A stretch of DNA of 64,000 nt, taken from Candidatus Zixiibacteriota bacterium. Lineage in GTDB: Bacteria; Zixibacteria; MSB-5A5; GN15; FEB-12. Below are positions 16,793 through 62,959 of this stretch, in pieces (the first letter of the stretch is position 1; the number at the start of each line of letters is the position of its first letter). The notes beneath the pieces were generated by a model. It saw nothing but the letters and a program-made list of their open reading frames with translations. It was not told the origin of the DNA and searched no databases. Position numbers and translations under genes: made by a program. The DNA lies in NCBI GenBank assembly GCA_034439475.1, contig JAWXAN010000042.1, positions 64,765 to 128,764 of the forward strand, in the 5' to 3' direction.

Positions 16793-19714
16793 ATGAATGG
16801 AAGGAGTCAGGTGCGATTTCATAAAGTCCGACAGAGTTTACTGACTCTCAATGTTCTTTTGTTAATGTTTTTTCCCTCATTTTCTTTCGCCAATGATCGC
16901 ATTCACGAAAGCTTATCCTCGTTAGCTGGCAATCTCCAAGCCGCTGACAGTTTAGTTGATGTTCTAATTTTCCTGGATACCAAAGAAACTGAGGCTGCCG
17001 TTTCCAAATCGCTCCAGCGTCCAAACATAAGCCGACATACAAGAATACAATCCGTCATTACAAGTCTCACTTCGGTAACTCCGACAGATCGTAGAGAAGT
17101 GGAAGATTTCTTAAACAGCATCTCCAGTTCGCCAGTTCAGTTATACTGGATAGCGCCTTGTTACACAGCAACTATTCCGGCAAGTTCGCTTGGAAAACTC
17201 TCGACCATGAGCGCCGTGACATTGATAATACCAAATCTTGGTATCGACTTTATCCCGGTGGTGGAAAGCTCTCCCGCTCCACAGTCTGTTTCGACAATAG
17301 CCTCCGAGCTCAATGCTATGGGCGTTCCTCAACTTTGGCAGCGGGGCCTGACTGGCAAAGGTCGGTTAGTCTGTTCATTCGATACCGGAGTCGAAGGTGC
17401 CCATCCGGCATTATCATCAAAATGGCGTGGAAGACATAGTACTCTCTCCTCCTCCTGGTTTTCCAGTGTCTCACCAGACAGCCTGCCATCAGACAAAGTC
17501 GGCCATGGAACGCACACGATGGGAATAATGGTGGGTTCGGCATCAGCCGATTCTTTTGGAGTTGCCCCCGGCGCCGAGTGGATTTCCGCCGCGGTAATTG
17601 ATCAGGGACGCCCGCTCGGTACGACTGTAAGCGATATTATTGCCGCATTTCAGTGGTCTCTCAATCCGGATGGAAATATCTCCACAACGAATGATGTCCC
17701 CGATGTCATTCTCAACAGTTGGGGTATCCCGACCGGCCTCTTTGGTCCCTGCGACCAAACGTTTTGGTCTGTTATTGATAATGTTGAAGCGGCGGGAATT
17801 GTAACAATTTTCGCGGCCGGAAACGAAGGACCAAATCAAAAAACTATCAGAAATCCAGCGGACAGAGGAAGCAGTCCAACCAACTCATTCTCGGTCGGCG
17901 CGATTGATCTCGGCAATGTCGTCGCAAACTTTTCAAGCCGCGGTCCATCGGCCTGCGATCCGACACATATCAAGCCCGAGTTGGTTGCTCCGGGTGTGGT
18001 TGTCCGTTCTTCGACCAAGGGCGGCGGGTTTGCTTTTATGAGCGGAACATCGATGGCCGCTCCGTATATTGCTGGTCTGGTGGCGCTGTGCCGCCAGTAC
18101 AATCCCGACGCAACAGTTGACGAAATAAAACAAGCGTTAATAAATGCCGCAAATGACCTCGGGCCTGTAGGTGAAGACAATGCCTACGGATATGGGTTGG
18201 TCGACGCGTCCCGCCTGCCTGACTTTCTTTCAGCGCCGAGTCGAGCGGAATTTTCGGTGGCAGGACAAATTGTCAACGGAGATGGCGTCGCCTCGCCGGG
18301 CGAACTGATCGGACTTACCCTGTATCTTACGCAAAACTTCTCTTTGAATGCCTCAGTTCAAGGTCGTTTGAAGCCCCGCACGGCGGGTAATGTCGCCGTT
18401 ATCAATCAGCAGTCAGGATTCATTTTCGGCGAAGGCGGGGTAACGGCAATGAATGCTATACCATTTACACTGATGATCAACGAATCGGTGCCGAATGGGG
18501 CTTCAGAAAGTTTGGTACTTTATGTCGAGACGACCGATGGATCTGTCATTGATAGTGTCGAGTTGATATTAACCGTTGGATTTATTCCTCCCGGTCCAAA
18601 TGTGTCACACGCTGGGACTGCTGTCAGATTTTCAGTCTCAGGATTTGGGCAGTACGGCCTGGCATACGGCTCGATTTACAATCTCAATGGCGAAGGTTTT
18701 TGTTTCGGGAATTCTGAGAATCTACTCTATGAATCCGGTTTGATAGTGGGCAGGAGCGCACTTCAGCTATCATCGGCAATTCGCAATAGTCAGGGTTCAT
18801 TTACTCCTTCCGATTTTGCGCCCATCGGCGAATTCAGTCAGAGCCAAACAGTCGGAGAACTTCGCTACACTGTTGGTTTCGATGACCGACGCTCGTCAAT
18901 TCCCCTTCCGATAACCATCTCGCAGGAGACAATTAGTTATTCCAGCTTTGAGGATAATAGCATCGTCATAATGAACTACACATTGACGAATAAGACGTTG
19001 GAACGTCTGACTAACCTCCGCTTCGGTTTTTTAAACGATTTTGATTTGCCCGGCGCAAATAAGGCATACCTTGACGAGGTCGAAGGCTTTATTTATCAGC
19101 ATGGTGAGGGTGGCGCATTTATTGGTTTGGTTGCGCTAAAAAATGTCAATTCGTTCACCAGCATTTCCAATGTGACTGGCAAAACAGGCTTCACAAAGAC
19201 CCAGCAGTTCAGCCTTATTTCCACGAATGTCAACAATGTCGACAGTTCGCTCTCGGGCGATCTGCTTTTCATCGCGGCCTCAAATTCCATAACCCTTGAA
19301 CCTCGGGGAAATACTGAAGTTGCTTTTGCGCTCATTGCCGGTGACAATCTCGGACAACTCTATGAGAATATGGCTCGGGCAAGGGCGAAGTATGATATTG
19401 CGACAGGAATCGAAGACGACCCGGATGTTTTGCCGCAAAGCTTCAGCCTCGAGCAGAACTATCCCAATCCGTTTAATCCATCGACGACAATATCGTTTGG
19501 ACTTTCTGAGAGAAGTCATGTTTCCATCAGGGTCTTCAACATTCAAGGTCAGACGGTCAAGACCTTGACTTCAGGAGAACTTGGCCCGGGTAGCCATTCA
19601 GTCCTCTGGGATGCCACAAATGATCGGAATGAACCGGTATCCACGGGAATCTATTTTTATCGACTGGACACTAATTTTGGGGTCGAGACCCGTAAAATGG
19701 TTCTTTTAAGATGA
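16793..19714 (+). CDS. Subtilisin-like S8 serine protease with T9SS C-terminal sorting domain
   Basis: Catalytic triad contexts FDTGV (D), HGTHTMG (H) and GTSMAAPYIAG (S). N-terminal signal peptide. C-terminus LEQNYPNPFNPSTTISFGL...TGIYFYRL...RKMVLLR. An alternative start is GTG 16811, preceded by AAGGAG. Confidence 0.9.
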   Translation: MNGRSQVRFHKVRQSLLTLNVLLLMFFPSFSFANDRIHESLSSLAGNLQAADSLVDVLIFLDTKETEAAVSKSLQRPNISRHTRIQSVITSLTSVTPTDRREVEDFLNSISSSPVQLYWIAPCYTATIPASSLGKLSTMSAVTLIIPNLGIDFIPVVESSPAPQSVSTIASELNAMGVPQLWQRGLTGKGRLVCSFDTGVEGAHPALSSKWRGRHSTLSSSWFSSVSPDSLPSDKVGHGTHTMGIMVGSASADSFGVAPGAEWISAAVIDQGRPLGTTVSDIIAAFQWSLNPDGNISTTNDVPDVILNSWGIPTGLFGPCDQTFWSVIDNVEAAGIVTIFAAGNEGPNQKTIRNPADRGSSPTNSFSVGAIDLGNVVANFSSRGPSACDPTHIKPELVAPGVVVRSSTKGGGFAFMSGTSMAAPYIAGLVALCRQYNPDATVDEIKQALINAANDLGPVGEDNAYGYGLVDASRLPDFLSAPSRAEFSVAGQIVNGDGVASPGELIGLTLYLTQNFSLNASVQGRLKPRTAGNVAVINQQSGFIFGEGGVTAMNAIPFTLMINESVPNGASESLVLYVETTDGSVIDSVELILTVGFIPPGPNVSHAGTAVRFSVSGFGQYGLAYGSIYNLNGEGFCFGNSENLLYESGLIVGRSALQLSSAIRNSQGSFTPSDFAPIGEFSQSQTVGELRYTVGFDDRRSSIPLPITISQETISYSSFEDNSIVIMNYTLTNKTLERLTNLRFGFLNDFDLPGANKAYLDEVEGFIYQHGEGGAFIGLVALKNVNSFTSISNVTGKTGFTKTQQFSLISTNVNNVDSSLSGDLLFIAASNSITLEPRGNTEVAFALIAGDNLGQLYENMARARAKYDIATGIEDDPDVLPQSFSLEQNYPNPFNPSTTISFGLSERSHVSIRVFNIQGQTVKTLTSGELGPGSHSVLWDATNDRNEPVSTGIYFYRLDTNFGVETRKMVLLR

Positions 19715-19804
19715 ACGCTTTTCCGTATATTCATTGACAAGGCTGAAGTGATACTTAACTACACGATGAAAAAAATAATTCATGCGATACAAAGGATAAC
19801 AAGG

Positions 19805-22603
19805 ATGAACAATCCAACTCGTTCTCTTGCGGCTGTCGCAGGGATCATTCTCTGTGTTCTGACGGCTGCTGCTGTCAATGCCGTTTCTCCTACCGATGAA
19901 GCAATCGCGATTTGGAAAGCACAGGGGATCTATGAACAAAAGATAGCGGATTGGAAGGCGTTCAAGGAGGCTGGGGGATGCGCGCCCGGTGACCACTCTC
20001 TTTTCAGCAGAGAGAGAATACTCGCCAAAATGGCGCTTGGGGTTGACTCAGTGGAGACGGTCTATGTCCCGGTAATCCTTGTTGATTTTGTTGACTATAA
20101 ATGGAACGACAGCACATATGTGTTGGACGGCCAAACCAAACTTTCCACCCGAGTCTACGGCACGCCGTCGATGTTTGAATCTCTGCTGTTTTCGATCAAG
20201 GGCTCACCCGAAAGCAACCCGACGGGTTCAATGACCGATTTTTATATGGAAAACTCAAATGGCAAATTCTTTATGATTGGCGAAGTTCATGGTTGGTACA
20301 CCATGGACAAGCCCTATTCATATTACGTCGGCACCAACAGTGGACTTGGTGGTACCGGCTCGGTGCTTGCACGGGAAGCTATTGACTCAGCCGACACTCA
20401 CGGAGTGGATTTCAGTAGATATGACAACAACAATAACAATACCGTTGAGGGAGTTATCATCGTCCATGCCGGACCCGGCGCCGAGACCGGTCAGTGGGGC
20501 ATTTGGTCGCATAAGTCGGGCGTAACTCAAAATAAGGACGGGATGAGATTCTCTCAGTACACATTAAATCCGGAAGAATATGGCGGCACGATCTCGACGA
20601 TGGGCGTGTTTGCTCACGAATATGGGCATGTGCTCGGTCTTCCGGATCTATATGATGTCGGAAGTAACTCTAATGCCAGCGGACTTGGAAATTGGTCACT
20701 CATGTCAGGAGGAAGTTGGAATCAGAACGGCCGTGTGCCGGCTCATTTCGACGGATGGTGTAAGTGGAATCTTGGTTTTGCCAAGGCAACCATCTTGACT
20801 CAGAACACGCGTCAGGTCGAGTTCCCACAAACGACAACAGAAGCAGTCGTCTATCTTTTGCGAAATGCATCGGTTAGTTCGCTTGATTGGTGGATTGTCG
20901 AAAATCGTCAGAAAGTCGGCTTTGATGCGGCCCTGCCAGGGGCCGGTCTTATGATATATCATTACGACCAGGGAGCCGGCGCTCAGAATGACACGAATAG
21001 ATATCTCGTAGCGCTCGAACAAGCCGATGGATTAAATGGACTAATTAACGGCAGTAGCGGCGATGCCGGTGATACCTGGCCGGGGTCAACCAATAAGAGA
21101 AACTTTACAAATTTCACTACCCCTAATTCCTCTACAAATATAGGCGGACTGACAACTCAGGTCGGCGTCTGGAATATTTCCAATTCTGGGCCGATCATGT
21201 ACGCCGATCTTGACATCTCGTACTCAAGACCCTGGGTTGTTCTCTCAGGCGGCGATTCGATTAAGTTTTCCGATAATCTCCCGGGAGGTGACAACGATGG
21301 TATTTTCGAAGCTGGTGAAACGATTAAGTTTAATATGGGAGTGCTGAATCTGGCTAAAATCGCCTACGATACAAAGGTCACCTTGACCTGCGATAACCCC
21401 ACGCTCACTTTCGGCGGCAATCCCGGAAAACTCGAAACATTTCTTAATCCTACATTCACCGACCCGATTCGGATGCACACACCGATTTCGATTGTTATTC
21501 CGGCGGACTTTCAATCCAAAGGAGTCAATTTTACCATTACGCTGAACAGCGACTCGGTTATCAGTCTCAGCAATGGCGATGGCCTATTTGTAACAACTTT
21601 CCAGTCAAAAGTTACACTTGGAGCGCCTCAGATTATGCTTGTTGACGACGACAACGCTGGAGGATTCCAGAGCAGATACACCGTAGTACTTGATAGGATG
21701 AATCTTCCTTACGCAATTTGGGACAAGAGTGTAAGAGGAACTCCACCCTCGGCAGAGCTTGCAAAATATAGTTCCGTTTTCTGGTTTACCGGCTCGCAAA
21801 CAGCGGGCGGAACCCTGACAGCGGCTGATATAAGCGCGATCAAGCAACATATGGATGGCGGGGGCAATCTATGCCTGTCCAGCATGACTGTTCCTACTCA
21901 GTTGACTACCCTTGATTCAACATTCATGGAAACATATCTGAAGGCATCAGCTGGAAATTCACTGTTTGCCACTTACTTCTATGGTGTGCCCGGATTTGAG
22001 GTCAGTGACAGCAGCAGATATAATACGACCGGCGGTCATAATGGCACTCACCGCACTTTAACACCAATCAACGGTGGTCAGAGTCTGTTCACCCTCGGTA
22101 CGAACGGTAGTAATACGTCGCTCGGTACATGTGGAGTGCTCTATGATGGCTCATACAAGTCGGTGTTTTTGAGCTTTGCGATTGAGCATCTGAGTGATGG
22201 CTCATTAAACTCTAAACCCAAAGATTCGCTGATAGCTCGGATTATTAACTTTTTCGGAAAGGGAACTGCAACGGGCATCGATGATGACCAACAGGCTGGA
22301 CTTGTGCCCGCCGGATTCTCGTTGGCTCAAAATTATCCAAACCCCTTCAATCCAAGCACAACTATCGAGTATACAATTAACGGCAGCACAGGCTCGCGCA
22401 TACAGCGGGTGACACTTGCGGTCTATAATCTCCTCGGACAGAATGTGCGCACATTGGTCGACCAGACTCAGGGGCCGGGAACGTATACTGTAACCTGGGA
22501 TGGGAGCAATACCGAAGGGAGAGCTGTTTCAACCGGGCTTTACTTCTATCGACTTCAACGGGAAGGCGCAAGCGAGACCAAGAAGATGGTGCTCCTGAAA
22601 TAG
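19805..22603 (+). CDS. M6 (immune-inhibitor-A-like) zinc metalloprotease with T9SS C-terminal sorting domain
   Basis: HEYGHVLGLPDLYD zinc motif. Signal peptide MNNPTRSLAAVAGIILCVLTAAAVNA (start chosen at 19805; the track ORF opens at 19748). C-terminus LAQNYPNPFNPSTTIEY...TGLYFYRL...KKMVLLK. Confidence 0.85.
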   Translation: MNNPTRSLAAVAGIILCVLTAAAVNAVSPTDEAIAIWKAQGIYEQKIADWKAFKEAGGCAPGDHSLFSRERILAKMALGVDSVETVYVPVILVDFVDYKWNDSTYVLDGQTKLSTRVYGTPSMFESLLFSIKGSPESNPTGSMTDFYMENSNGKFFMIGEVHGWYTMDKPYSYYVGTNSGLGGTGSVLAREAIDSADTHGVDFSRYDNNNNNTVEGVIIVHAGPGAETGQWGIWSHKSGVTQNKDGMRFSQYTLNPEEYGGTISTMGVFAHEYGHVLGLPDLYDVGSNSNASGLGNWSLMSGGSWNQNGRVPAHFDGWCKWNLGFAKATILTQNTRQVEFPQTTTEAVVYLLRNASVSSLDWWIVENRQKVGFDAALPGAGLMIYHYDQGAGAQNDTNRYLVALEQADGLNGLINGSSGDAGDTWPGSTNKRNFTNFTTPNSSTNIGGLTTQVGVWNISNSGPIMYADLDISYSRPWVVLSGGDSIKFSDNLPGGDNDGIFEAGETIKFNMGVLNLAKIAYDTKVTLTCDNPTLTFGGNPGKLETFLNPTFTDPIRMHTPISIVIPADFQSKGVNFTITLNSDSVISLSNGDGLFVTTFQSKVTLGAPQIMLVDDDNAGGFQSRYTVVLDRMNLPYAIWDKSVRGTPPSAELAKYSSVFWFTGSQTAGGTLTAADISAIKQHMDGGGNLCLSSMTVPTQLTTLDSTFMETYLKASAGNSLFATYFYGVPGFEVSDSSRYNTTGGHNGTHRTLTPINGGQSLFTLGTNGSNTSLGTCGVLYDGSYKSVFLSFAIEHLSDGSLNSKPKDSLIARIINFFGKGTATGIDDDQQAGLVPAGFSLAQNYPNPFNPSTTIEYTINGSTGSRIQRVTLAVYNLLGQNVRTLVDQTQGPGTYTVTWDGSNTEGRAVSTGLYFYRLQREGASETKKMVLLK

Positions 22604-42890: not shown

Positions 42891-43089
42891 TCTGGTAGAG
42901 GCTGAAAGAGGTAGGCTCCAATCGAGACCCTCATACATTTACTGCATAAGGCTTGTGAAAGCTGATAGTTGAAAAGAATTCAGTGTGAAAAGCTGTCCTT
43001 TGGGGAAGCAATTCCCTTCGGGATTCCGAGAACGCGCCGAGAACAACTGCTGCCGCTCTTGGTTTGAGGAAGTCGATTTAGGAGGAAAG

Positions 43090-46000
43090 ATGAATCGATT
43101 CGGGTTGTTGTCTATATATTTACTTGCGTGTCTTCTCTGTATTGGTGTTGCTGGCAGCGTTAATGCCGACCCGCTGGTACATCCCCCCATTTTGGAACTG
43201 CCCAATGATACGGCAGTTTTTTTGTGCAAGGGAGACTCTATCTGCTATGTGGTTGCGGCCACCGACACCGATCCCCTCGAAGAACTGACGCTGAGCTTGC
43301 TCAGCGGCCCGATTAGTTTTCCGACCAAAAAATTCGACAATCCGCTCACTACAAAAATCTGCTTCAAACCAACAAGCGGGGGGACATACCGATTCATCTG
43401 GAAAATAGTCGACAATTCCGGCCGGTCGGATATCGATACCGTCATATATACAGTCTTATTCAACGATCCTCCTTCAATGCAAGACCAGTACTTCTCGACG
43501 CTTTTTTGCAGAGGAGAGTCAGTCAGGACCCTGCAAGTTGTAGCTACTGATGCCGAAAACGATATTCTCACATATAAACTGATCTCCGGCCCGGGATCTA
43601 TAAATCCAGAGTCCGGCCTCATCAGTTATCTCCCGATAGCTACCGGCATATATACTTTTTCGGTTCTCGTGACCGATTTATGCGGAAGCGATATGGCCAA
43701 TGTGTTCGACACCGTCGAGGTCGTCAAACCAGCAAAACTTGACTGTCCGGGGGATACCTCAATTACGATCTGCGAGGGGACCAAAATCTGCCTCTATGGT
43801 TTTTCGTCGACCTTCGATGAGACGACTGTATCACATGGCACAATTGTCAATGAGACGCTCTGTTTTACGGCTGATACATCCGGCGTCTATGTTATCAAAG
43901 TTATCGGAACCGACAAATGCGGCGCGGATACCTGTGAAACCAGAGTGACGGTAAACAAAGGCGAACTTCCGAGCATCAAAGACCAATACTTTTCGGGTAG
44001 TTTCTGTTCTGATGAGATAAAAAGAACCCTTCAGGTTATTGCGACCGATGCTGACAATGATGTTCTGACCTATGAATTGCTCTCAGGTCCCGGCTCGATC
44101 AACTCATCGACCGGTTTGATTGCGTACACACCAACAGCAAGTGGCGTTTATACTTTTTTAGTTAGTGTGAGCGATACATGCGGAAGCGCTATCGCACAGG
44201 TATTCGACACGATAGTTGTCAATCCGAAAGGGAAGGTTGACTGCCCCGGCGATACCTCGCTGATGCTTTGCGAAGGAACAAAAGTTTGCCTCCCCGGTTT
44301 CGGATCCGATTTTGAGCATACGACCGTGTCGCTGGGAACGCTTGTCGATGGCACAGTCTGCTTTACGGCTGACACGAGCGGTGTCTATGTTATTAAGTTG
44401 ATAGGCAGCAATGAGTGCGGCGCTGATACCTGCGAGACACGGGTCACGGTCGGAAAGAGTACATTTACAGGATTTGTCTGTGGCGATACCGCCAACAGTA
44501 AAACTCTTAACCTTTGCTCGTCAGAAAATATTACTGTTCTCAAGGATTGTCATATAAATGGCGATCAAGTGTCGGTTATCTCATCATATGGGACATGGAA
44601 TGCTCAGACGGGAAACTGGACCTTCTACGCTGATACAAGCGGATTATATACGACCTTGATCGTTGCAACCGATTCCTGTGGCGCGAGTGATTCGCTCACA
44701 TTAAGTCAGGAAGTGGCAATAAACAAGCCACCCAGGATAGTTTTGCCAAACGACACCACCACGTTCTTATGCGAATCAGATTCGATATGCTTTGAATTCT
44801 TCGTGTTTGATTCACCAAGTGATATCAGAGGTAGAATTGTTGAATCGAACATCGGAAGTTTCAAGCCACAGGCTGCTCCTATTTTATTCCCACAGACCAA
44901 ATTTGAGGTCTGCTTTTTAGGGGACACAGCCGGTGTGTACCAAATTATCATCACCGCCACTGACTCATGCGGTGTAACCGACAAAGATACCGTCTTAGTT
45001 ACCGTCAAGAAAAACCGCGCGCCGTATATTACTATGGCCAACGATTTCACCGTCGCAAGCTGTACCGCTGAAAAAATCTGTTTTTCTGCCACCGCCGATG
45101 ATCTTGATCTCAACATCCAGACTATTACTTCAAATTTTGGTATATTCGATAACAACAGCGATCGAATCTGTTTCGATGCCGACACGAATGGCGTCTACAC
45201 GATCATCCTCACTGCTACCGACAGTTGCGAAGTGAGCGATCAAGACACAACCAAAGTCACGGTCACTGTCAACAAGCCGCCGACATTGAGTCTTGGACCT
45301 GATTTCACCAAAGACACCTGTGGACTCCTGTCCGAAATTTGCATAAACACCGGCATAGTTGACGAGAATATTAAATCTGTCACGACCACTTTTGGGCTTT
45401 ATAATCCTAACACCAAACAGGTCTGTTTTATACCCGATTCATCCGGCCTCTACGTTCTTGTAGTAAGAGTTGTCGACGATTGCAATATCGCTGCAGTAGA
45501 TACGGTCAATATAACCATCGGTCTCAACCACCCGCCGACTGTCAGCGGCTTCAATGATACGACCCTCTATATCTGTTCGCCGCAATATATCTGCCTTAAT
45601 CCTTCGATCATAGATGCTGACAATGATATTGCGTCGGTGACGATCAATCAGGGGAAATTCAAAGACGGCATGTACTGCTTTGTTCCCTACGACAGCGGGA
45701 CATACACGCTTATTTTAACTGTGATCGATTCCTGTGGCAATAAAGTTATAGATACGGCCAAGGTCAAAGTCACAACTGATCAAGGAATGAATGTGGTCGT
45801 CCCGAAAGACACCTCGATTTTCCTCTGCGAAGCGGATACCCTTTGTTTCCCGATAAAAAATATACCCGCCAATGCGACAATTAAAGTTCGCGGTACTGGT
45901 GTCTGGTACAATCCGGCAACCCAAACAGTCTGCTTCTACTCATCATGCTGTATCCAGAACAAGATTTATGTCGATGTGACGACACCATGCGGAAAGCGCA

Positions 46001-49000
46001 CATTCAGCTTCACCGTCAATCTGATGACTAACAGCAAACCGCTGGTGATTCTGCCTCAGGACGGCGCGTATCAACTTTGCGACGCCAAGGAAATCTGTCT
46101 CCCGGCCGGTATTTCTGATTTGGACAAAAATATATCTTCCATTGTGGTGGAAGGCGGAACATACGACGCATACAGCAAAACAATCTGTTTTGCTCCCGAT
46201 ACTGCCGGAGTCTATATTATCAAAGTAACGGCTACCGACTCGTGCGGCCTGGGCGACTCCGATTTTATCCGCGCGACAGTGCGAATCAACTTCCCACCAG
46301 TTATCACGTATACCCCGACAGACAGCATTTTTGAGCAATGTAATCTCACTCAGATTTGTTTGCCGGTAAATGTTTCCGATAATGACAAAAATATCCAAAA
46401 CATTACCGTCTCGAACGGCGGTGTGTATAATGCAATCAACAAAACAGTCTGTTTCAACCCACCGGGCATCGGACAGTTTTGCCTCCAGATGGTTGCCTAT
46501 GACAGTTGCGGTATTGCCGATTCAGCAGACATCTGTTTCACAGTTACCGCGGGCGACTCGGTTGAGATTGCCTGCCCTGTGATAGGCACTCCTGGTCGTT
46601 CACGTGGCTCCGTGACGACCGTTATTCCGGCATTGCTCTGCGGGCCGGACTCTGTTTGTATCCCGCTTGCCGTAACAGGTGATTATTCGTCGATTTCCGT
46701 CACCGGCGGAATATATAAAGATGGTGAGATATGCTTTTACGCTGACACAACCGGTGAATACAGCTTCACGGTTATTGCATCCGGTTCATGCAACAGTGAC
46801 ACCTGCCAGTTTACTTATCCCGTGATGATTGAGCCATCGGTTTTCGTGAGATGCCCAGGCGATACTGCGGTAAATCTTTGTTTTAGCGATACGCTTTGTT
46901 TCCCGATCGAGACATCGGTTCCGATGACCTACCTGACAGTTCTTGGCGGAGGTTACATTGATGGAGCGAACCTCTGCGTTCCGCTCACAGTGACCGGCAC
47001 AAAAATTATTACTGTCATCGCCGCAGGCGAATGCGGCTCAGACACCTGCTCGTTTACAGTCGGTACCAAACTCAATACGCCGCCAAGTGTCAAAGTTGAC
47101 GACACCACGTTTACCCTTTGTGCGCTCGATAAACTCTGCTTCCCAGTTGATGTCTTTGATGTTGATGGTAACCTGAAAGAACTCACAACGTCTATCGGCT
47201 CAGTTGGAAAAGTTGCAATCGAAAATCTTGCCGCACAGGTACTGAATGAAGACGGCCAGCCGACTGTATCAACGACACCGGAATACAAGATATGCTTTAC
47301 CCCAGAAGCTTATGGCACATACAATATTGTTGTCACTGCGATCGATTCATGCGGCAAAACAGATACCGACACTCTGACTGTTACTATCAATCAAGGGGAT
47401 GGTGTCTCGATAGCCTGTCCGAAACTGGACTCGCTCAGTTTTTGCGCTCCGAGCCAAATCTGTCTGCCGATACCAATAACAGGCGAAACGTTTGATGTCA
47501 TTTCCGGCTTTGGCGTCTGGGAAAACGACACCCTCTGTTTTGATGCCGACACAAGCGGATTCTATGCTTTTGACCTGATAGCGACATCAGGATGCAACAC
47601 CGATACTTGTTTAATCGAGATTGCAATCGCGATTTCAGATTCAGTTAACATAACCTGTCCGACCGGGGATACCACCTTGGTTGCCTGTCAGTCACCGGCC
47701 GTCTTCACCTTCCGCTATTCGATTACCGGCAATCCCACCAAGATTACCATTACCCCGCCCAATGCTATATTAGAGGGGGGACTTATCAAATTGACGGTCA
47801 ATCAGACTGGCTCGTATGTGGTCAAAGTTATTGTTGAAGGCAACTGTAATATTGACAGCTGTTTTTTCACTGTGAATGCCGCAATCAATACCCCGCCAGT
47901 GTTGATGGGACCTGAAGATACAAGTCTTGTCGCTTGCGTCCTGAGTACAATATGCCTGCCTATCAAAGCAGTCGATGCCGAAAATAATATCCGTGAAATT
48001 CGGTCGACACTCGGCGTGGTCGATGATTCAGTCATCTGCTTTACTCCGTCGGCATTCGGCGACTATCAAATTATTCTCTCGGCCGTCGATTCCTGCGGCG
48101 AGCGCGCAGTCGATACCTTCTTAATTTCCGTGAATCAGGGAGATTCAGTTGAAATCAACTGCCCGAACTCAACAATCCTTGTCTCGGTGATAGTTCCTGA
48201 TTCGATTCGTGTCCCGCTCACCATTACGCCTGAAGGAGTGGGTGTGATAATCCAGCCCGACGGTTCGGGTTACTATGACCAGAACACCAGCGAGGTTGTT
48301 GTGTATGTGACTTCATATGGAGCGCATTCCTACCAAGTGATTGCTTCAAGTAAATGCGATGTTGACTCATGTGACCTCACTATCGAAGTCGGCGAATATT
48401 TCCCGCCGACTGTGGTGTGTATCGGGACCACAGACACAGTGCTCTGTTTGACCGAACAGGATACGCTCTGTTTGCCGGTAACAGTATCTGGTAGTGCGAC
48501 CAATGTTGCCGTTTCTCCGGCAGGCGTGTACGCTGACGGTCAGGTTTGCATTCCTGTTGACACCGCCGGAACATATTTGGTTCGGATAATCGCCTCAAAC
48601 GAAACCGACGCCGATACCTGCTATTCTTCAATCACAGTTACCCGCAGCAAGCCGCCTGTTGTCGACTTGCCGCCATCGCTGTCATTTGCGCTCTGCCAGT
48701 TCGGAGAGCTGTGTGTCCCGGTTGATATAAGTCAGAGTGACTATGACCTTGCTCAAATTACAGTCAACTTTGGCCGCTACGACTCGACCCTTAAATCAGT
48801 CTGCGCGACATTTGACACAACCGGATTATATACGATAATCGTCTCAGTCATCGACTCATGCGGTAACTCTTCAACCGATACCTCGCTTGTGACTGTCACT
48901 GTCAATACCCCTCCGACTGTTGGCCTTGGCGCTGATTTCAAAGAGTTCTTGTGCGCTGTATCCAGCGAGATTTGTGTGCCAGTAAATGTCTCAGATGACA

Positions 49001-51444
49001 ACCTCGGCACTGTCACCTCCAATTTTGGGGTCTACAGCGCGGTAAAGAATACGGTTTGTTTTATAGCAGATACTTCGGGAATCTACACGATTATTGTGAC
49101 TGCCACCGACACGTGCGGCCAGTCGTCGGTTGATTCAATTAGAATAGACGTTGAAAAGAATACTCCGCCCTCGATTAGCGCTTTCAAAGATACTTTGCTA
49201 TACCTCTGCAAACCACGTGAAATATGCCTCCCGCTCAGCGTTCTCGACATCGATGGCAATCTGGCTTCGGTGACGGTAAATCGCGGCACGATTAAAAATG
49301 GCACAATCTGCTTTGTCCCGTATGACAGCGGGTCATATCAGTTCATTATTACTGCTACAGACTCATGCGGAGCGATCGCTGAGCATCGGGCAACGTTACG
49401 AATCAGAACCGATCAGGGAATTGCGCTTATCTGCCCGAAGGACACAGCGTTGTTCTTGTGCGAGCCTGATACGCTCTGCTTCCCAGTGGGCGGAATCCCT
49501 GACGATGCAACTGTCACAGTGTCAGGAACTGGTGTCTGGTGGGATCCGATAGGACAGAAAGTCTGCTTCTACTCCTCGTGCTGTATCCAAAATAGAATAC
49601 GTGTCAACGCCAAATCAGCATGCGGACAGACATTTACGTGCAGCTTTACTGTCAATCTGATGACCAATGCCAAACCGCTGGTCATTCTGCCCCAGGACAC
49701 GACTGTTGTCCAGTGTGCTCCGACACAAATTTGTTTGCCGGTCGGAATTCAGGATATTGATAAGAATCTTAAAAATATTACGGTTGTTGGCGCAGTTTAT
49801 AACGCACAATCTAAGATTGTTTGTTTCACACCCAATACTGTCGGTACATACACGATAACGGTCAAGGCGACCGACTCATGCGAATTATATGACGATGACA
49901 AAATGGTTGTTCGTGTTGAAGGAAACAAACCGCCGACAATCAGCTACACGCCGGTTGACACGGTATATAATCAGTGCCAGCCAACTCAGATTTGTCTGCC
50001 GGTTTCAATTGCCGATTCCGATAGTAATCTCGGTTCAGTCACGGTAACCGGGGGCGTGTATAACGCTACTCAGGGCACAGTCTGCTTCACGCCGAACAGC
50101 TCCGGCGAGTATTGTGTCATGGTATACGCGAACGATAAATGTGGGACGAGTGACACGCTTGAAATTTGTGTTGACATTACCACAGGCAATTTTGCGGAAA
50201 TTCTCTGCCCAGCCAATCCCTTCAAAGAAGACACGCTCTGCAAACCCGGTCTTGTCTGTGTTCCGCTATCTGTGACTGGAGTGAATTACTCCGTGACGGT
50301 CGAAAGCGGAACATGGGAGAGCAACCAGCTCTGTTTCAGCGCAGACACCAGCGGTGTATATACACTCAAGGTCATTGCCTCAGCGCAGTGCAACAGTGAT
50401 ACCTGTATTGTAAGAGTCCCCATGGTTATCGAACCTAAAATCGAGATTGTTTGTCCGGGTAACCAGAATGTCTTTCTTTGTGGTTCCGATACGCTCTGTT
50501 ATCCATTGACCGTTTTAGGATCAGTAACAAATATCACCGCCAGCGCCGGTGCGTATATCGAGGGCAATAACGTCTGTGTGCCCTTTATCGTGAGTGGCAG
50601 TCGATCCATACAAGTCATCGCCAGCGGTGAATGCGGAGCAGATACCTGCGCGTTTACGATCTCAGCTACAATTAATAGGGCTCCGATTGTGACCCTTGGC
50701 AAAGACAGTGCTTTGACGGTCTGTACTTTGAACCAGATTTGTGTGCCTTTGACTATTCAAGATTTCAATAGTAATATTCGAACGATAACGACCACACTTG
50801 GGACAATTCAGGGCAGCCAGCTTTGCTTTACCCCAACCACATTCGGGACATTCACCCTAATTGTGACTGCCACCGACTCCTGCGGAGCAAGCGGCAAAGA
50901 CACGATCAAAGTGACTATCAACAAAGGCGCCTCGGCTGTTATCACATGTCCCGATAATCTCCAGTTCGCATCGCTTTGCAAACCAGACACGATCTGTATC
51001 ATTGCGCCCATAACACCCGCAAATGCCATTGTCACAATTCTCCCAGCTGGAACGTACAATCCATCAACCGGCACGATCTGTGTGTATGCTGACAAGAGCG
51101 GCACCTTTCCGATTAAGATTATCGCATCCGCCCCATGCGGCACTGATACGTGCGACTTCAATCTTCAAGTCACACTGAACCAAAAGCCGGTTATTTCCTG
51201 TCCCGGAGCAATTGATACGCTTCTCTGCATTGCTTCGCCGACGACGCTGTGCTTCCCAGTGACTGTCACAGGAACAGGAGTCAGTGTTACGGTCAAACCG
51301 TTTGGAACATACTCGGCCGGAACGGTCTGCCTGCCGATATCAGCTGTAGGGACATTCGCAATAAAAATCATCGGAACAGGCGTCTGCGGAGTAGACACCT
51401 GCGAAACTTCGGTGACCGTCCGCAAGGATGAGGCCCTTCGCTAA
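43090..51444 (+). CDS. Giant secreted cysteine-rich modular protein (about 32 Ig-like modules); N-terminal part of a split T9SS cargo
   Basis: GGAGGA RBS (43081-86). Signal peptide MNRFGLLSIYLLACLLCIGVAGSVNA. Reiterated ~85-100-aa modules carry conserved Cys and the core ...(I/V)CF.(A/P)DTSG(V/I)YT...V.ATDSCG..D.DT..VTV. The protein has no C-terminal sorting domain of its own. Confidence 0.9.
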   Translation: MNRFGLLSIYLLACLLCIGVAGSVNADPLVHPPILELPNDTAVFLCKGDSICYVVAATDTDPLEELTLSLLSGPISFPTKKFDNPLTTKICFKPTSGGTYRFIWKIVDNSGRSDIDTVIYTVLFNDPPSMQDQYFSTLFCRGESVRTLQVVATDAENDILTYKLISGPGSINPESGLISYLPIATGIYTFSVLVTDLCGSDMANVFDTVEVVKPAKLDCPGDTSITICEGTKICLYGFSSTFDETTVSHGTIVNETLCFTADTSGVYVIKVIGTDKCGADTCETRVTVNKGELPSIKDQYFSGSFCSDEIKRTLQVIATDADNDVLTYELLSGPGSINSSTGLIAYTPTASGVYTFLVSVSDTCGSAIAQVFDTIVVNPKGKVDCPGDTSLMLCEGTKVCLPGFGSDFEHTTVSLGTLVDGTVCFTADTSGVYVIKLIGSNECGADTCETRVTVGKSTFTGFVCGDTANSKTLNLCSSENITVLKDCHINGDQVSVISSYGTWNAQTGNWTFYADTSGLYTTLIVATDSCGASDSLTLSQEVAINKPPRIVLPNDTTTFLCESDSICFEFFVFDSPSDIRGRIVESNIGSFKPQAAPILFPQTKFEVCFLGDTAGVYQIIITATDSCGVTDKDTVLVTVKKNRAPYITMANDFTVASCTAEKICFSATADDLDLNIQTITSNFGIFDNNSDRICFDADTNGVYTIILTATDSCEVSDQDTTKVTVTVNKPPTLSLGPDFTKDTCGLLSEICINTGIVDENIKSVTTTFGLYNPNTKQVCFIPDSSGLYVLVVRVVDDCNIAAVDTVNITIGLNHPPTVSGFNDTTLYICSPQYICLNPSIIDADNDIASVTINQGKFKDGMYCFVPYDSGTYTLILTVIDSCGNKVIDTAKVKVTTDQGMNVVVPKDTSIFLCEADTLCFPIKNIPANATIKVRGTGVWYNPATQTVCFYSSCCIQNKIYVDVTTPCGKRTFSFTVNLMTNSKPLVILPQDGAYQLCDAKEICLPAGISDLDKNISSIVVEGGTYDAYSKTICFAPDTAGVYIIKVTATDSCGLGDSDFIRATVRINFPPVITYTPTDSIFEQCNLTQICLPVNVSDNDKNIQNITVSNGGVYNAINKTVCFNPPGIGQFCLQMVAYDSCGIADSADICFTVTAGDSVEIACPVIGTPGRSRGSVTTVIPALLCGPDSVCIPLAVTGDYSSISVTGGIYKDGEICFYADTTGEYSFTVIASGSCNSDTCQFTYPVMIEPSVFVRCPGDTAVNLCFSDTLCFPIETSVPMTYLTVLGGGYIDGANLCVPLTVTGTKIITVIAAGECGSDTCSFTVGTKLNTPPSVKVDDTTFTLCALDKLCFPVDVFDVDGNLKELTTSIGSVGKVAIENLAAQVLNEDGQPTVSTTPEYKICFTPEAYGTYNIVVTAIDSCGKTDTDTLTVTINQGDGVSIACPKLDSLSFCAPSQICLPIPITGETFDVISGFGVWENDTLCFDADTSGFYAFDLIATSGCNTDTCLIEIAIAISDSVNITCPTGDTTLVACQSPAVFTFRYSITGNPTKITITPPNAILEGGLIKLTVNQTGSYVVKVIVEGNCNIDSCFFTVNAAINTPPVLMGPEDTSLVACVLSTICLPIKAVDAENNIREIRSTLGVVDDSVICFTPSAFGDYQIILSAVDSCGERAVDTFLISVNQGDSVEINCPNSTILVSVIVPDSIRVPLTITPEGVGVIIQPDGSGYYDQNTSEVVVYVTSYGAHSYQVIASSKCDVDSCDLTIEVGEYFPPTVVCIGTTDTVLCLTEQDTLCLPVTVSGSATNVAVSPAGVYADGQVCIPVDTAGTYLVRIIASNETDADTCYSSITVTRSKPPVVDLPPSLSFALCQFGELCVPVDISQSDYDLAQITVNFGRYDSTLKSVCATFDTTGLYTIIVSVIDSCGNSSTDTSLVTVTVNTPPTVGLGADFKEFLCAVSSEICVPVNVSDDNLGTVTSNFGVYSAVKNTVCFIADTSGIYTIIVTATDTCGQSSVDSIRIDVEKNTPPSISAFKDTLLYLCKPREICLPLSVLDIDGNLASVTVNRGTIKNGTICFVPYDSGSYQFIITATDSCGAIAEHRATLRIRTDQGIALICPKDTALFLCEPDTLCFPVGGIPDDATVTVSGTGVWWDPIGQKVCFYSSCCIQNRIRVNAKSACGQTFTCSFTVNLMTNAKPLVILPQDTTVVQCAPTQICLPVGIQDIDKNLKNITVVGAVYNAQSKIVCFTPNTVGTYTITVKATDSCELYDDDKMVVRVEGNKPPTISYTPVDTVYNQCQPTQICLPVSIADSDSNLGSVTVTGGVYNATQGTVCFTPNSSGEYCVMVYANDKCGTSDTLEICVDITTGNFAEILCPANPFKEDTLCKPGLVCVPLSVTGVNYSVTVESGTWESNQLCFSADTSGVYTLKVIASAQCNSDTCIVRVPMVIEPKIEIVCPGNQNVFLCGSDTLCYPLTVLGSVTNITASAGAYIEGNNVCVPFIVSGSRSIQVIASGECGADTCAFTISATINRAPIVTLGKDSALTVCTLNQICVPLTIQDFNSNIRTITTTLGTIQGSQLCFTPTTFGTFTLIVTATDSCGASGKDTIKVTINKGASAVITCPDNLQFASLCKPDTICIIAPITPANAIVTILPAGTYNPSTGTICVYADKSGTFPIKIIASAPCGTDTCDFNLQVTLNQKPVISCPGAIDTLLCIASPTTLCFPVTVTGTGVSVTVKPFGTYSAGTVCLPISAVGTFAIKIIGTGVCGVDTCETSVTVRKDEALR
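43468..44463 (+). repeat. Tandem duplication (2 x 498 bp, 166 codons) inside the giant gene
   Basis: PPSMQDQYFSTLFC...CGADTCETRVTVNKGE is followed directly by LPSIKDQYFSGSFC...CGADTCETRVTVGKS. The two copies are collinear throughout. Confidence 0.85.
45010..51440 (+). repeat. Super-repeat inside the giant gene: a multi-module block of about 3.63 kb followed by a second, shorter, collinear copy
   Basis: The offset is exactly 3,633 bp at three checkpoints: VNKPPT 45268 / VNTPPT 48901, CFYSSCC 45931 / 49564, and (I/L)CP 46573 / 50206. Module order is conserved to the end of the ORF. Confidence 0.85.
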
Positions 51445-51536
51445 CCGTCCCCTCTGGACTTAGTTTCGAACGCTGTCCCGAGGATTCGACTCCAATCTGC
51501 GTCGATGGAATATATGGCGATGACAGCCGTAGCGCC

Positions 51537-53216
51537 GTGACATTGAGCAAAACATGCGGCATAGGCTCGCTGGTCCTCAGCGGCTCAGATAGTGGCAAAA
51601 TATGTTTTGTTCCAGACACGACCGGCATCTATACCTTCTGTGTTCAAGCTACCGACGGCTGCAATGTGACGAAAGACACCGTGTCTGTAACGATTTTGCC
51701 TAAAGATGATTGCGATGTTTGTGTCCGCTTCTCATTTGACTACGGTGAATGTTCACCTGTGGGCGTGCGCAAGAAAATAGCTCTTAATATCGAATCAAAT
51801 CAGCCCATCGGCGGTTTTGAGCTTCTGTTGAGTTTCGATGCCTCGGTGCTCAGTTTCGTTGGAGCCTCAACAGTTGGAACCGCAATTAAGGATTGGGAGT
51901 ATTTCACATGGAATCTTAAGAGCGCAGGTTGCGGCTCATCGTGTCCCTCGGGACTTATACGGTTTGTGGGAATAGCGGATATTAATAACGGAGCCAAACA
52001 CCCACCCCTGTCGGCCTTCTCGCCCAATGGCGCGCTTGTATTCATTGAATTCCAGATTGCCAACAATCAGAACCTCGGAGATCAATTCGTTCCGGTTTCC
52101 TTTGTATGGTTTAGCTGCGCTGACAATAGTGTCTCCGACCCAACGGGAAGCACTCTGTATGTCGATAGCCGAATCTACAATCCGGGCGGCATTCTGCTGT
52201 GGGACGAATTCAATGATACCGTTTTCCCTGAAAGTAATCGACTGTTCGGTCTTGGAGCGCCAGACAACTGCTTTACCGGCGCTGGCAAGACGCCTCCGCG
52301 GCGGTGTATTGAGTTTATCAACGGCGGAGTTTGTATTATTCATCCGGATTCGATTGATGCTCGCGGCGATGTCAACCTTAATAATCTCGCGTATGAGATA
52401 GCCGATGCCGTGCTCTTCTCAAATTACTTCATCCACGGGCTCGGCGTTTTCACTCTTAGCGTCCCCGGACAGATTGCCGCGACCGATGTCAATGCTGATG
52501 GTTCCACGCTTACTGTTTCTGATTTGACATACCTCATTCGCGTTATTGTCGGCGATGCCGATCCGGTGCCCAAGACAGATCCGTATGCTGAAAACGCATC
52601 GGTAGAAACCGAAACAAGCAATGGGCAAATGACAGTTTCAACCGAAACAGTCGGGGATGTCGGCGGGGCCTATTTTGTCTACGCACTTTCAGAGAACATG
52701 GTGATAGAATCTGTGCAGTTGACCGATGCGTCCTCGCAGATGGACCTCATGTACGGAGTAGAGAACGGCCAGTTGCGAATACTTGTCTGGAATATTGGAA
52801 CAGCACGAATCGAAGCTGGCAAGCATGATCTTCTCAAAATCAACTACGCTGGCGAGGCAGATGTACGGCTGGACAAGGTAGACATAGCCGATTATCATGG
52901 ACGGCCATACGTCACAGGTAAGACCGCTGGAGCTGTTCCGGAAAGCTACACGCTCCAACAGAACTATCCGAATCCGTTCAATCCGACGACTACAATCTCA
53001 TTCAGTCTGCCCGTATCCGGCGTGTGGAAGCTGAGCATATATAATATCAGAGGCGCGCTTGTGAGACAATATACCGGAAGTGACGAAGCTGGCTCAACGA
53101 ATGTCGTCTGGGATGGTAGAACCGAACAAGGTGAAACGAGCGCATCTGGCATGTATCTCTACCGTCTGGAGGCGGCAAGCTTCTTGAAGACAATGAAAAT
53201 GATACTATTGAAGTAA
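51537..53216 (+). CDS. C-terminal part of the split giant protein: one further Cys-rich module, a cohesin-like domain, a dockerin-like pair, a beta-sandwich and the T9SS sorting domain
   Basis: This frame is already open from 51432 and encodes a complete upstream module half (LTVPSGLSFERCPEDSTPICVDGI...). There is no signal peptide at the GTG start. ICFVPDTTGIYTFCVQATDGCN matches the giant-gene module. The C-terminus is LQQNYPNPFNPTTTISFSL...GMYLYRL...MKMILLK. Confidence 0.85.
   Translation: MTLSKTCGIGSLVLSGSDSGKICFVPDTTGIYTFCVQATDGCNVTKDTVSVTILPKDDCDVCVRFSFDYGECSPVGVRKKIALNIESNQPIGGFELLLSFDASVLSFVGASTVGTAIKDWEYFTWNLKSAGCGSSCPSGLIRFVGIADINNGAKHPPLSAFSPNGALVFIEFQIANNQNLGDQFVPVSFVWFSCADNSVSDPTGSTLYVDSRIYNPGGILLWDEFNDTVFPESNRLFGLGAPDNCFTGAGKTPPRRCIEFINGGVCIIHPDSIDARGDVNLNNLAYEIADAVLFSNYFIHGLGVFTLSVPGQIAATDVNADGSTLTVSDLTYLIRVIVGDADPVPKTDPYAENASVETETSNGQMTVSTETVGDVGGAYFVYALSENMVIESVQLTDASSQMDLMYGVENGQLRILVWNIGTARIEAGKHDLLKINYAGEADVRLDKVDIADYHGRPYVTGKTAGAVPESYTLQQNYPNPFNPTTTISFSLPVSGVWKLSIYNIRGALVRQYTGSDEAGSTNVVWDGRTEQGETSASGMYLYRLEAASFLKTMKMILLK
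51711..52346 (+). other. Cohesin-like domain coding segment
   Basis: VRFSFDYGECSPVG..IALNIESNQPIGGFELLLSFDASVLSFVGAS...GALVFIEFQIANNQNLGDQFVPVSF matches the cohesin-type beta-sandwich pattern (GGF.L.L.FD...L.F). Recognised by eye only. Confidence 0.5.
52356..52565 (+). other. Dockerin-like duplicated Ca-binding segment
   Basis: Two EF-hand-like repeats: GDVNLNNLAYEIADAVLFSNYF and TDVNADGSTLTVSDLTYLIRVIVG. Confidence 0.55.
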
Positions 53217-62134: not shown

Positions 62135-62959
62135 ATGTGGAAGAACAACCGATATCGTCCTGAAGGCGGCCTGTCCATAGGCCCGGGAGCAATCTCTCCA
62201 TTCATTAAAACGATGTTAATCTTTAACATCGCGGTTTTTGTCCTTCAAATACTCATTCCCGGACTGAGCGAGATTTTTGGACTGAGTCCGGCGGTATTCT
62301 TTGAGCGTTTTCCAAATCTGCTCTATCAACCGTTTACCTATATGTTCCTCCACGGCGGCTTCGGTCATATTTTCTTTAATATGTTCATGCTGTGGATGTT
62401 CGGCACCGAAGTCGAGCACTCGATGGGTAGCAAGTCATTTGGGCGGTTTTATATACTTGCTGGGCTGGCTGGAGCATTGTTGACTTTGATAGTTCATCCG
62501 AGCCAAGAGGCAGTCATGGTCGGAGCTTCAGGAGCAATAAATGGTGTACTCGTTGCCTACTGGATAATGTTTCCCACTCGCCTTCTCTATATCTATTTTC
62601 TTTTCCCGGTTCAGGTAAAATGGGCAATTCCAGGTCTTATGTTGATAAGTTTTCTCTTTGGAGGATCAAATATCGCCCATATGGCTCACCTCGGAGGAGC
62701 TGTGTGCGGATTCATTTACCTGAAAGAAAACTGGCGCTGGGCTTCTTTTGGAAGCAGATTTAAAAACTTGCGCTACCGTCGTCAATCCGCGAAGCTTGAA
62801 AAGAAGCGGCAGGAAGCGTCAGAGATTATGAAACGAGTAGATACGATACTGGATAAAATAAACGAAGTCGGCATAGAAAATATTAGCAAGGCCGACCGTA
62901 AGTTTCTCGAAGACGCCTCATCTGAATTGTCGAAACAGAAAAATTTGTCCAAAAACTGA
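62135..62959 (+). CDS. Rhomboid-family intramembrane serine protease
   Basis: Six-TM core with the GASGAING (catalytic Ser) and AHLGGAV (catalytic His) motifs, followed by a charged C-terminal tail. Confidence 0.85.
   Translation: MWKNNRYRPEGGLSIGPGAISPFIKTMLIFNIAVFVLQILIPGLSEIFGLSPAVFFERFPNLLYQPFTYMFLHGGFGHIFFNMFMLWMFGTEVEHSMGSKSFGRFYILAGLAGALLTLIVHPSQEAVMVGASGAINGVLVAYWIMFPTRLLYIYFLFPVQVKWAIPGLMLISFLFGGSNIAHMAHLGGAVCGFIYLKENWRWASFGSRFKNLRYRRQSAKLEKKRQEASEIMKRVDTILDKINEVGIENISKADRKFLEDASSELSKQKNLSKN

Follow-up and report, generated by a model that had tools for sequence, protein, structure and literature searches.

A recurrent cohesin-dockerin cassette ahead of a predicted type IX sorting domain in proteins of Zixibacteria

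Introduction

As connectors of high affinity, cohesin-dockerin pairs are classically known from the cellulosomes of Gram-positive bacteria, and they are also common tools in synthetic biology. Here we ask what such a pair may be doing at the C-terminal end of a giant gene of Candidatus Zixiibacteriota, where both modules are predicted to lie on one polypeptide, ahead of a type IX secretion system (T9SS) sorting domain. The gene is found in a stretch of 64,000 nucleotides (GenBank assembly GCA_034439475.1, contig JAWXAN010000042.1, positions 64,765 to 128,764 of the forward strand), which is referred to as the window; all positions are counted from its first letter. A preliminary description, made from the sequence alone, had read four elements at 51711-53213, and proposed that a cohesin and a dockerin on one surface-anchored chain could allow self-polymerization or the docking of other proteins, in a non-cellulosomal scaffold.

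Results

A four-module cassette reused in thousands of proteins

The four modules indeed follow each other in the order proposed, on one polypeptide, and the peptide motifs quoted in the preliminary description are all in frame within 51711-53213 of the forward strand, without stops. They are part of a tail open reading frame (ORF) of 559 amino acids (51537..53216, frame 3), and are numbered here as a segment whose residue 1 lies at 51711:

51711..52346, forward strand: cohesin (segment residues 1-212), recognized from its AlphaFold2 (AF2) fold, Foldseek, Pfam matches in homologues and the family profile
52356..52565, forward strand: dockerin (segment residues 216-285), two loop-helix (F-hand) repeats, GDVNLNNLAYEIAD... 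and TDVNADGSTLTVSD...
52587..52901, forward strand: third beta-sandwich, X3 (segment residues ~293-397)
52965..53216, forward strand: T9SS type A C-terminal sorting domain and stop, NYPNPFNP...KMILLK

Far from being confined to one protein, this four-module cassette is a conserved unit reused in thousands of proteins with differing passengers, mainly in metagenome-assembled genomes (MAGs) of Zixibacteria. A database search with residues 1-420 returned 203 relatives of at most 59% identity, nearly all from Zixibacteria MAGs or metagenomes, whose passengers are HYR, He_PIG, cadherin, VWA or PKD/immunoglobulin (Ig) domains. When a profile was searched against 1.84 billion representatives, at least 3,507 protein clusters matched at E<=1e-30; species-representative genomes gave 531 confirmed matches, and the best 80 of these come almost all from Zixibacteria-type MAGs. 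Among the 147 best representatives, the order cohesin-dockerin-X3-sorting domain was found in 119, at the C-termini of proteins of 570-3,600 amino acids, and the dockerin begins 1-9 residues past the cohesin in all 147. X3 accompanies the cassette in every case.

Variants of this arrangement are found as well. Some relatives carry two or three tandem cassettes (three in P0123, P0126 and P0128), and P0121, P0123 and P0125 have 3-5 cohesins together with a sorting domain; in P0121, four tandem cohesins without a dockerin are combined with extra dockerins and the sorting domain. Cassette-type dockerins without a cohesin occur in P0121 and P0124. In P0122 the last module is a hybrid dockerin whose two loops differ, one being canonical (12 residues) and the other having 13 residues. 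P0105 is made up of a signal peptide, then a cassette, then a canonical dockerin at its C-terminus (43.8 bits in Pfam, matching over 25 PDB dockerins). Neither protein carries a sorting domain.

Among the closest genomic matches (loci L002, L004, L006, L011 and others), many come from MAGs that bear the label 'uncultured Ignavibacteriales' and a few from MAGs recorded as Calditrichaeota, GN15 or Deferrimicrobium; the other close matches carry a Zixibacteria label. It may be that these labels are unreliable, or that the cassette reaches beyond Zixibacteria.

The first module has a cohesin fold

An AF2 model of the first three domains (residues 1-420, alignment of 117 sequences) was obtained with a predicted local distance difference test (pLDDT) value of 91.6 and a predicted template modeling score (pTM) of 0.79, the cohesin strands spanning residues 5-209. 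In the model, this module is the nine-stranded beta-sandwich expected of a cohesin, and it superposes on solved cohesins. Among the top 50 Foldseek matches in the PDB most were cohesins, the remainder being integrin ectodomains and one chain containing a carbohydrate-binding module (CBM). Type I cohesins gave the best matches (1aoh_B, TMt 0.80; 2vn5_A, 0.75; 5nrm_A, 0.73; 3ul4_A, 0.72; all with a Foldseek probability of 1.0), type II cohesins being lower (TMt 0.48-0.55), and as modeled the module resembles type I cohesins most closely. An insert of 30-40 residues precedes the last cohesin strand.

The preliminary description had called for searches with cohesin and dockerin models, and at this level the window sequence itself stays below the Pfam thresholds, whereas homologue, profile and fold evidence supports both modules. 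For the cohesin, Pfam Cohesin (PF00963) did not match the window's own residues 1-212, even at E<=10, and phmmer with the window sequence against the PDB found no cohesin, its top match, a histidine kinase at E=0.012, being spurious. However, PF00963 was matched by 14 of the 40 aligned homologues (best E=2e-8), and in P0015, P0046, P0050, P0057, P0079 and P0114 it scored 26.8-35 bits, above the cutoff of 24.1, in the region aligned to the window cohesin. The family profile also matched about ten PDB cohesins weakly (E 0.008-0.85), in the same region each time. Judged from its homologues and its predicted fold, the module is a true cohesin, as the preliminary description had it.

Two cysteine pairs of the cohesin, C74/C78 and C136/C187 in segment numbering, are strongly conserved, and may form disulfides in the exported protein. 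We know of no conserved cysteines in clostridial cohesins.

The second module is a dockerin with 13-residue loops

Pfam Dockerin_1 (PF00404) matched the second module at 16 bits (E=0.014), below its cutoff of 22.9, over profile positions 2-54 of 57, and an aligned homologue, P0055, reached 20.8 bits. We then compared the family's dockerin columns with bona fide dockerins by hhalign, using as reference four sequences, three taken from PDB alignments and the fourth being the C-terminus of P0105. The match had a probability of 92.9% (E=3.8e-7) over 56 columns that include both repeats; 20 column shuffles gave 0.1-3.2%, and the cohesin and X3 profiles 0.1-0.2%. A hidden Markov model built from four dockerin sequences matched the cassette dockerin in six orthologous loci.

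A dockerin-only AF2 model (pLDDT 88.4; helices 26-42, 47-53 and 65-76) led to the same assignment. All 14 of its Foldseek matches in the PDB are dockerins (TMt 0.52-0.78, root-mean-square deviation (rmsd) 2.1-5.0 A), and come from cohesin-dockerin complexes or from a double-dockerin module; among them are 3ul4_B (TMt 0.78) and 5m2o_B (TMt 0.77, rmsd 2.2 A). A generic EF-hand reading was rejected in view of these fold matches and of the hhalign alignment, which is in register over both repeats. The 43.8-bit Dockerin_1 match in P0105 was not retained as support, since it belongs to the separate canonical dockerin at the C-terminus of that protein.

Both loops carry Asp or Asn at positions 1, 3 and 5 plus a terminal Asp, and the predicted calcium ligands (D220/N222/N224/D232 and D259/N261/D263/D271) show either no variation or a conservation of at least 90%. 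When aligned with the reference dockerins, each loop has one residue more than the canonical 12-residue dockerin loop, and the last Asp is thus at loop position 13 and not 12. The dockerin is also the most conserved module of the cassette, with a mean identity to the window sequence of 70%, compared with 39% in the cohesin and 28% in X3. On the strength of homologues and fold we take the dockerin reading of the preliminary description to be right: the module is, as predicted, a true, slightly unusual dockerin.

The third sandwich and the sorting domain

The third module, also announced as a beta-sandwich, is modeled by AF2 with eight strands (residues 295-394) at pLDDT above 90. X3 has no match in Pfam and no sequence match in the PDB. 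The possibility that it is a degenerate cohesin was discarded, with no signal in hhalign (0.4%), and an hhalign match between X3 and the sorting domain proved to be an artefact of 10 columns common to both sub-alignments.

The T9SS assignment of the C-terminus was upheld by TIGR04183 (NCBIfam, T9SS type A sorting domain), which scored 38.9 bits against a cutoff of 23 over residues 477-556 of the 559-residue ORF. In Pfam, the domain was matched by FlgD_ig (37.5 bits, cutoff 27) and by Por_Secre_tail at 25.5 bits, just below the cutoff of 27, and the family profile matched the sorting domains of PorU, PorZ and 8glj.

Proposed binding in trans, or a possible rigid base

These modules could work together as follows. 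The segment is the C-terminal cassette of a single gene of about 3,376 codons from a Zixibacteria-type bacterium, and the product, built from PKD/Ig-like repeats, would be a surface protein exported by Sec and the T9SS. By analogy with the T9SS of Bacteroidota, which is established knowledge, the sorting domain would route the protein through the T9SS and be cleaved, leaving the protein tethered to the outer membrane, so that the cohesin-dockerin-sandwich unit would come to lie next to the cell, at the foot of a long stalk of Ig repeats. There, the calcium-loaded cassette dockerin would bind in trans to a cohesin carried by another cassette protein or by a relative with several cohesins, and T9SS cargo, joined laterally or head-to-tail, would form a network at the surface. 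With a dockerin so highly conserved, a single docking code could serve many different cargo proteins.

We tentatively prefer this reading, in which a T9SS surface cassette links cargo through dockerins that bind other proteins' cohesins in trans, although we stop short of calling it probable. It is favored because the modules are separable in relatives, which carry cohesins without a dockerin and dockerins without a cohesin; because terminal dockerins exist, both without a sorting domain (P0122) and in canonical form (P0105); because all predicted calcium-ligand positions are invariant or nearly so; and because in Ruminococcus bromii the cohesin of Amy4 recognizes the dockerin of the same protein (PMC4611034).

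Several observations weigh against it. The 1-9 residue linker in all 147 representatives, together with the pTM of 0.79 for the three-domain segment, fits a rigid and possibly internally packed unit. On the putative 8-3-6-5 dockerin-binding face of the cohesin, whose strands were assigned by their order, the outward positions vary, in contrast to the 70% conservation of the dockerin, and a conserved canonical interface would not lead one to expect this. No other cohesin or dockerin was found in the 64-kb window or in the 6-kb flanks of 80 orthologous loci, and the gene is frameshifted in the window, its tail being cut off from the signal peptide and the passenger. Mean-field direct coupling analysis (DCA) of 319 non-redundant cassettes was uninformative on the interface and counts neither for nor against: no cohesin-dockerin pair was among the top 200, and the top pairs were artefacts of gappy regions. 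The conservation of the dockerin is too high for covariation.

Some of these observations lend themselves to a different explanation, possible if somewhat doubtful, in which cohesin, dockerin and X3 pack within one chain as a stiff, calcium-stabilized base between the attachment point provided by the sorting domain and the passenger, and make no connection between molecules. Such a base would be analogous to the pairing of X-module and dockerin in type II systems and, in other T9SS cargo, to the Ig-like domain ahead of the sorting domain. The near-zero linker, the duplication of the unit as a block and the pTM and pLDDT values of the 420-residue model all speak for such packing, and on account of the linker and the pTM cohesin and dockerin may form a rigid unit instead of two independent sticky ends. 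In addition, the most conserved cohesin motifs (WEYFTYR, NNGxxHP and DCGDN) do not obviously fall on the presumed 8-3-6-5 face, and no partner genes are near the cassette in the window or the flanks. However, a high pTM combined with short linkers may overstate rigidity, and relatives carry unpartnered cohesins and dockerins, as well as terminal dockerins without a sorting domain. A structural role alone also leaves unexplained why both dockerin helices are 70% conserved across hundreds of species when the neighboring modules are at 28-39%.

Going further with binding in trans, the cassette could be a self-complementary, calcium-dependent coupler that joins varied T9SS-displayed proteins of Zixibacteria (Ig-repeat adhesins, HYR, cadherin and VWA proteins and multi-cohesin scaffoldins) into a surface lattice or fibre. 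This would amount to a phylum-wide, cellulosome-like system without enzymes, on a Gram-negative outer membrane, built on a dockerin subtype with 13-residue loops; in this full form we regard the proposal as unlikely.

The gene is interrupted by a frameshift

The preliminary description had placed the four elements on a tail after the last Cys-rich module. Comparison with relatives makes the tail and the giant Cys-rich part one gene, but in the window they lie in different frames: the upstream Cys-rich ORF (42985..51444, frame 1, 2819 amino acids) is closed by a premature TAA at 51442-51444, produced by a frameshift, ahead of the tail ORF in frame 3. Frame 3 upstream of 51537 encodes a further Cys-rich repeat (GPSLTVPSGLSFERCPEDSTPICV...), back to a stop near 51430. 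The features concerned are:

43087..51444, forward strand: N-terminal part of the gene, a putative Sec-type signal peptide (MNRFGLLSIYLLACLLCIGVAGSVNA) followed by ~2,780 amino acids of Cys-containing PKD/Big_9/Y_Y_Y Ig-like repeats
51434..51436, forward strand: frameshift site, a CCC run (context 51420-51445), where +1 C restores ...VTVRKDEA-PSLTVPSGLSFERCPED... and fuses the giant and tail ORFs
51435..51710, forward strand: last Cys-rich Ig-like passenger repeat in the frame 3 translation, with weak Pfam matches to K319L-like_PKD (E=0.046) and He_PIG (E=0.083)

The repeats of the giant ORF were matched by Y_Y_Y (67 bits), Big_9 (59.5), PKD_4 (57.1) and PKD (53.6) in Pfam. The Sec-type, signal-peptide-like N-terminus at 43087 was judged by eye, and is on the upstream ORF, separated from the tail by the frameshift.

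One missing C in 51434-51436 explains the break in frame, since the homologue P0005 reads through the equivalent point with an unbroken VTVRADQAPQLILPTGLVFERCPDD. Across 80 related genomic loci, the frame upstream of the tail is open for at least 1,000-2,000 codons in most, and it ends exactly 81 codons past the module in nearly all. As related loci mostly have a continuous open frame, the tail and the giant ORF represent one gene of ~3,376 codons, and the relatives, being continuous, also led us to reject a programmed frameshift. From the sequence, the gene break would be due either to faulty assembly or to a lesion that arose recently.

Should the deletion be genuine and not stem from the assembly, the copy in the window is inactive. 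The organism would then make a 2819-residue product without a sorting domain and a 559-residue tail without a signal peptide, and the cassette would be idle in it, an outcome that we consider improbable, though far from negligible. It would account for the two ORFs in different frames and the premature TAA in a gene that is continuous in relatives; moreover, none of the approximately 28 neighboring ORFs inspected has split domains, which argues against a generally error-prone assembly. On the other hand, the loss of one homopolymer base within a long gene full of repeats is what assembly or consensus errors typically look like, and no further stops occur in either half over ~10 kb, so that decay, if any, would be very recent.

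T9SS-related and other genes in the window

Beyond the giant gene, the following genes were noted:

7636-10965, forward strand: outer-membrane protein of 1109 amino acids with CarboxypepD_reg, Plug and TonB-barrel domains, directly upstream of the PorV/PorQ gene
10975-12012, forward strand: PorV/PorQ family gene (NF033709, 197 bits, cutoff 90)
12036-14309, forward strand: ORF of 757 amino acids right after the PorV/PorQ gene, with no match in Pfam or NCBIfam
16793-19714, forward strand: S8 subtilase ending in a sorting domain (FlgD_ig/Por_Secre_tail)
19748-22603, forward strand: M6 immune-inhibitor-A-like peptidase, adjacent to the subtilase and ending in the same kind of sorting domain
62135-62959, forward strand: rhomboid-family protease, sub-threshold to rhombosortase TIGR03902 (32 bits, cutoff 84)

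The PorV/PorQ family gene in the window suggests that the genome has T9SS components, and together with the two peptidases that end in sorting domains it is in keeping with the preferred reading; the scanned ORFs of the 64-kb window included no core components such as SprA/Sov, PorU and PorK-N. The S8 and M6 peptidases do not carry the cohesin-dockerin cassette.

Discussion

Cohesins outside cellulosomes are already known, as are dockerins outside cellulosomes and proteins that carry both modules (2xdh, 2jh2, 3l8q, 3kcp; PMC4611034). What is new here is the fused cohesin-dockerin-X3 cassette right before a T9SS sorting domain, its Zixibacteria-wide spread, and a dockerin with 13-residue loops. 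A full-text literature search found no paper that connects Zixibacteria to type IX secretion, to cohesins or to dockerins, and related ideas have been published for other phyla (PMC8542988; PMC4611034; bioRxiv 10.64898/2026.03.19.712371).

With a single cohesin, no carbohydrate-active enzyme (CAZyme) or CBM domains in the gene, no other cohesin or dockerin in the window, and two neighboring peptidases that have sorting domains and no dockerins, the locus does not present itself as a cellulosome or a scaffoldin. The non-cellulosomal character proposed in the preliminary description is thereby sustained, the passenger consisting of PKD/Big_9/Y_Y_Y Ig-like repeats with nothing cellulosomal in the gene.

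Cohesin folds outside cellulosomes are exemplified by the Archaeoglobus fulgidus cohesin 2xdh and the Clostridium perfringens NagJ cohesin (2jh2/2o4e), which are among our fold and profile matches, but they belong to other lineages and architectures and are not followed by a T9SS sorting domain. The A. fulgidus cohesin protein also carries a dockerin. Clostridial adaptor and primary scaffoldins, ScaA of A. cellulolyticus and CipA of C. thermocellum (CohI9-X-DocII), likewise combine one or more cohesins with a dockerin on each chain, and have an Ig-like X module beside the dockerin; indeed, the clostridial scaffoldin structures 3l8q, 3kcp_A and 4fl4_C are among the top Foldseek matches. However, clostridial scaffoldins have the order X-dockerin, flexible linkers and surface-layer homology (SLH) or sortase anchoring, and the cohesin bound by their dockerin is of another type and sits on a separate protein, whereas the window gene has the order cohesin-dockerin-X, almost no linker and a T9SS anchor.

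A precedent for self-recognition is Amy4 of the R. bromii amylosome, whose cohesin binds Amy4's own dockerin, implying multimerization (PMC4611034). Amy4 is a Gram-positive GH13 enzyme, predicted to attach to the surface of the cell through the scaffoldin Sca2 (PMC4611034). As in Amy4, cohesin and dockerin of the window gene are on one secreted protein in a context other than cellulose, and the Amy4 mechanism is the one that the preliminary description had proposed. Unlike Amy4, the window gene has non-catalytic Ig repeats, a T9SS sorting domain, an abutted cohesin and dockerin, and a cassette that is reused on a large scale. Giant Ig-repeat surface proteins with cohesin and dockerin modules have also been described in the Chlorobiota, for Cag_2037 and Cag_2038 of Chlorochromatium, where AlphaFold 3 models a cohesin-dockerin interaction and export by a type I secretion system (T1SS) was proposed (bioRxiv 10.64898/2026.03.19.712371). 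There, unlike in the window gene, the cohesin is on one protein and the dockerin on another, with no fused cassette.

Another giant cohesin-bearing protein from a candidate phylum outside the Firmicutes is the scaffoldin-like protein of Ca. Stygibacter (Cloacimonadota), with a conserved C-terminal domain that was inferred, citing a T9SS review, to attach it to its own cell surface (PMC8542988). It carries tandem cohesins with CBM2/CBM3 and has dockerin-bearing enzymes as partners, without a fused cohesin-dockerin-sandwich cassette; the window gene, by comparison, combines a single cohesin with a dockerin of its own, and lacks CBM and enzyme domains. A similar hierarchy on a T9SS anchor, in place of self-polymerization, in which the cassette cohesin would receive separate secreted proteins with canonical dockerins (like P0105) and the cassette dockerin would plug into multi-cohesin relatives (like P0121), is quite improbable in our view: the canonical C-terminal dockerin of P0105, the 3-5 cohesins with sorting domain of P0121, P0123 and P0125, the P0122 hybrid dockerin that bridges canonical and cassette types, and the model proposed for Cloacimonadota (PMC8542988) fit it, but the partner proteins are not linked to the same genome as any single-cassette protein, and no such partner gene is in the window or beside the orthologous loci.

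Self-polymerization or docking by the cassette remains plausible, as read from the sequence. If cassette dockerins do bind cohesins of other proteins in trans, diderm bacteria would organize their outer surface by the same connector logic as cellulosomes, and there would be a concrete hypothesis for the role of many giant Ig-repeat proteins in uncultured Zixibacteria. The conserved dockerin with its 13-residue loops could be part of a new, orthogonal binding pair.

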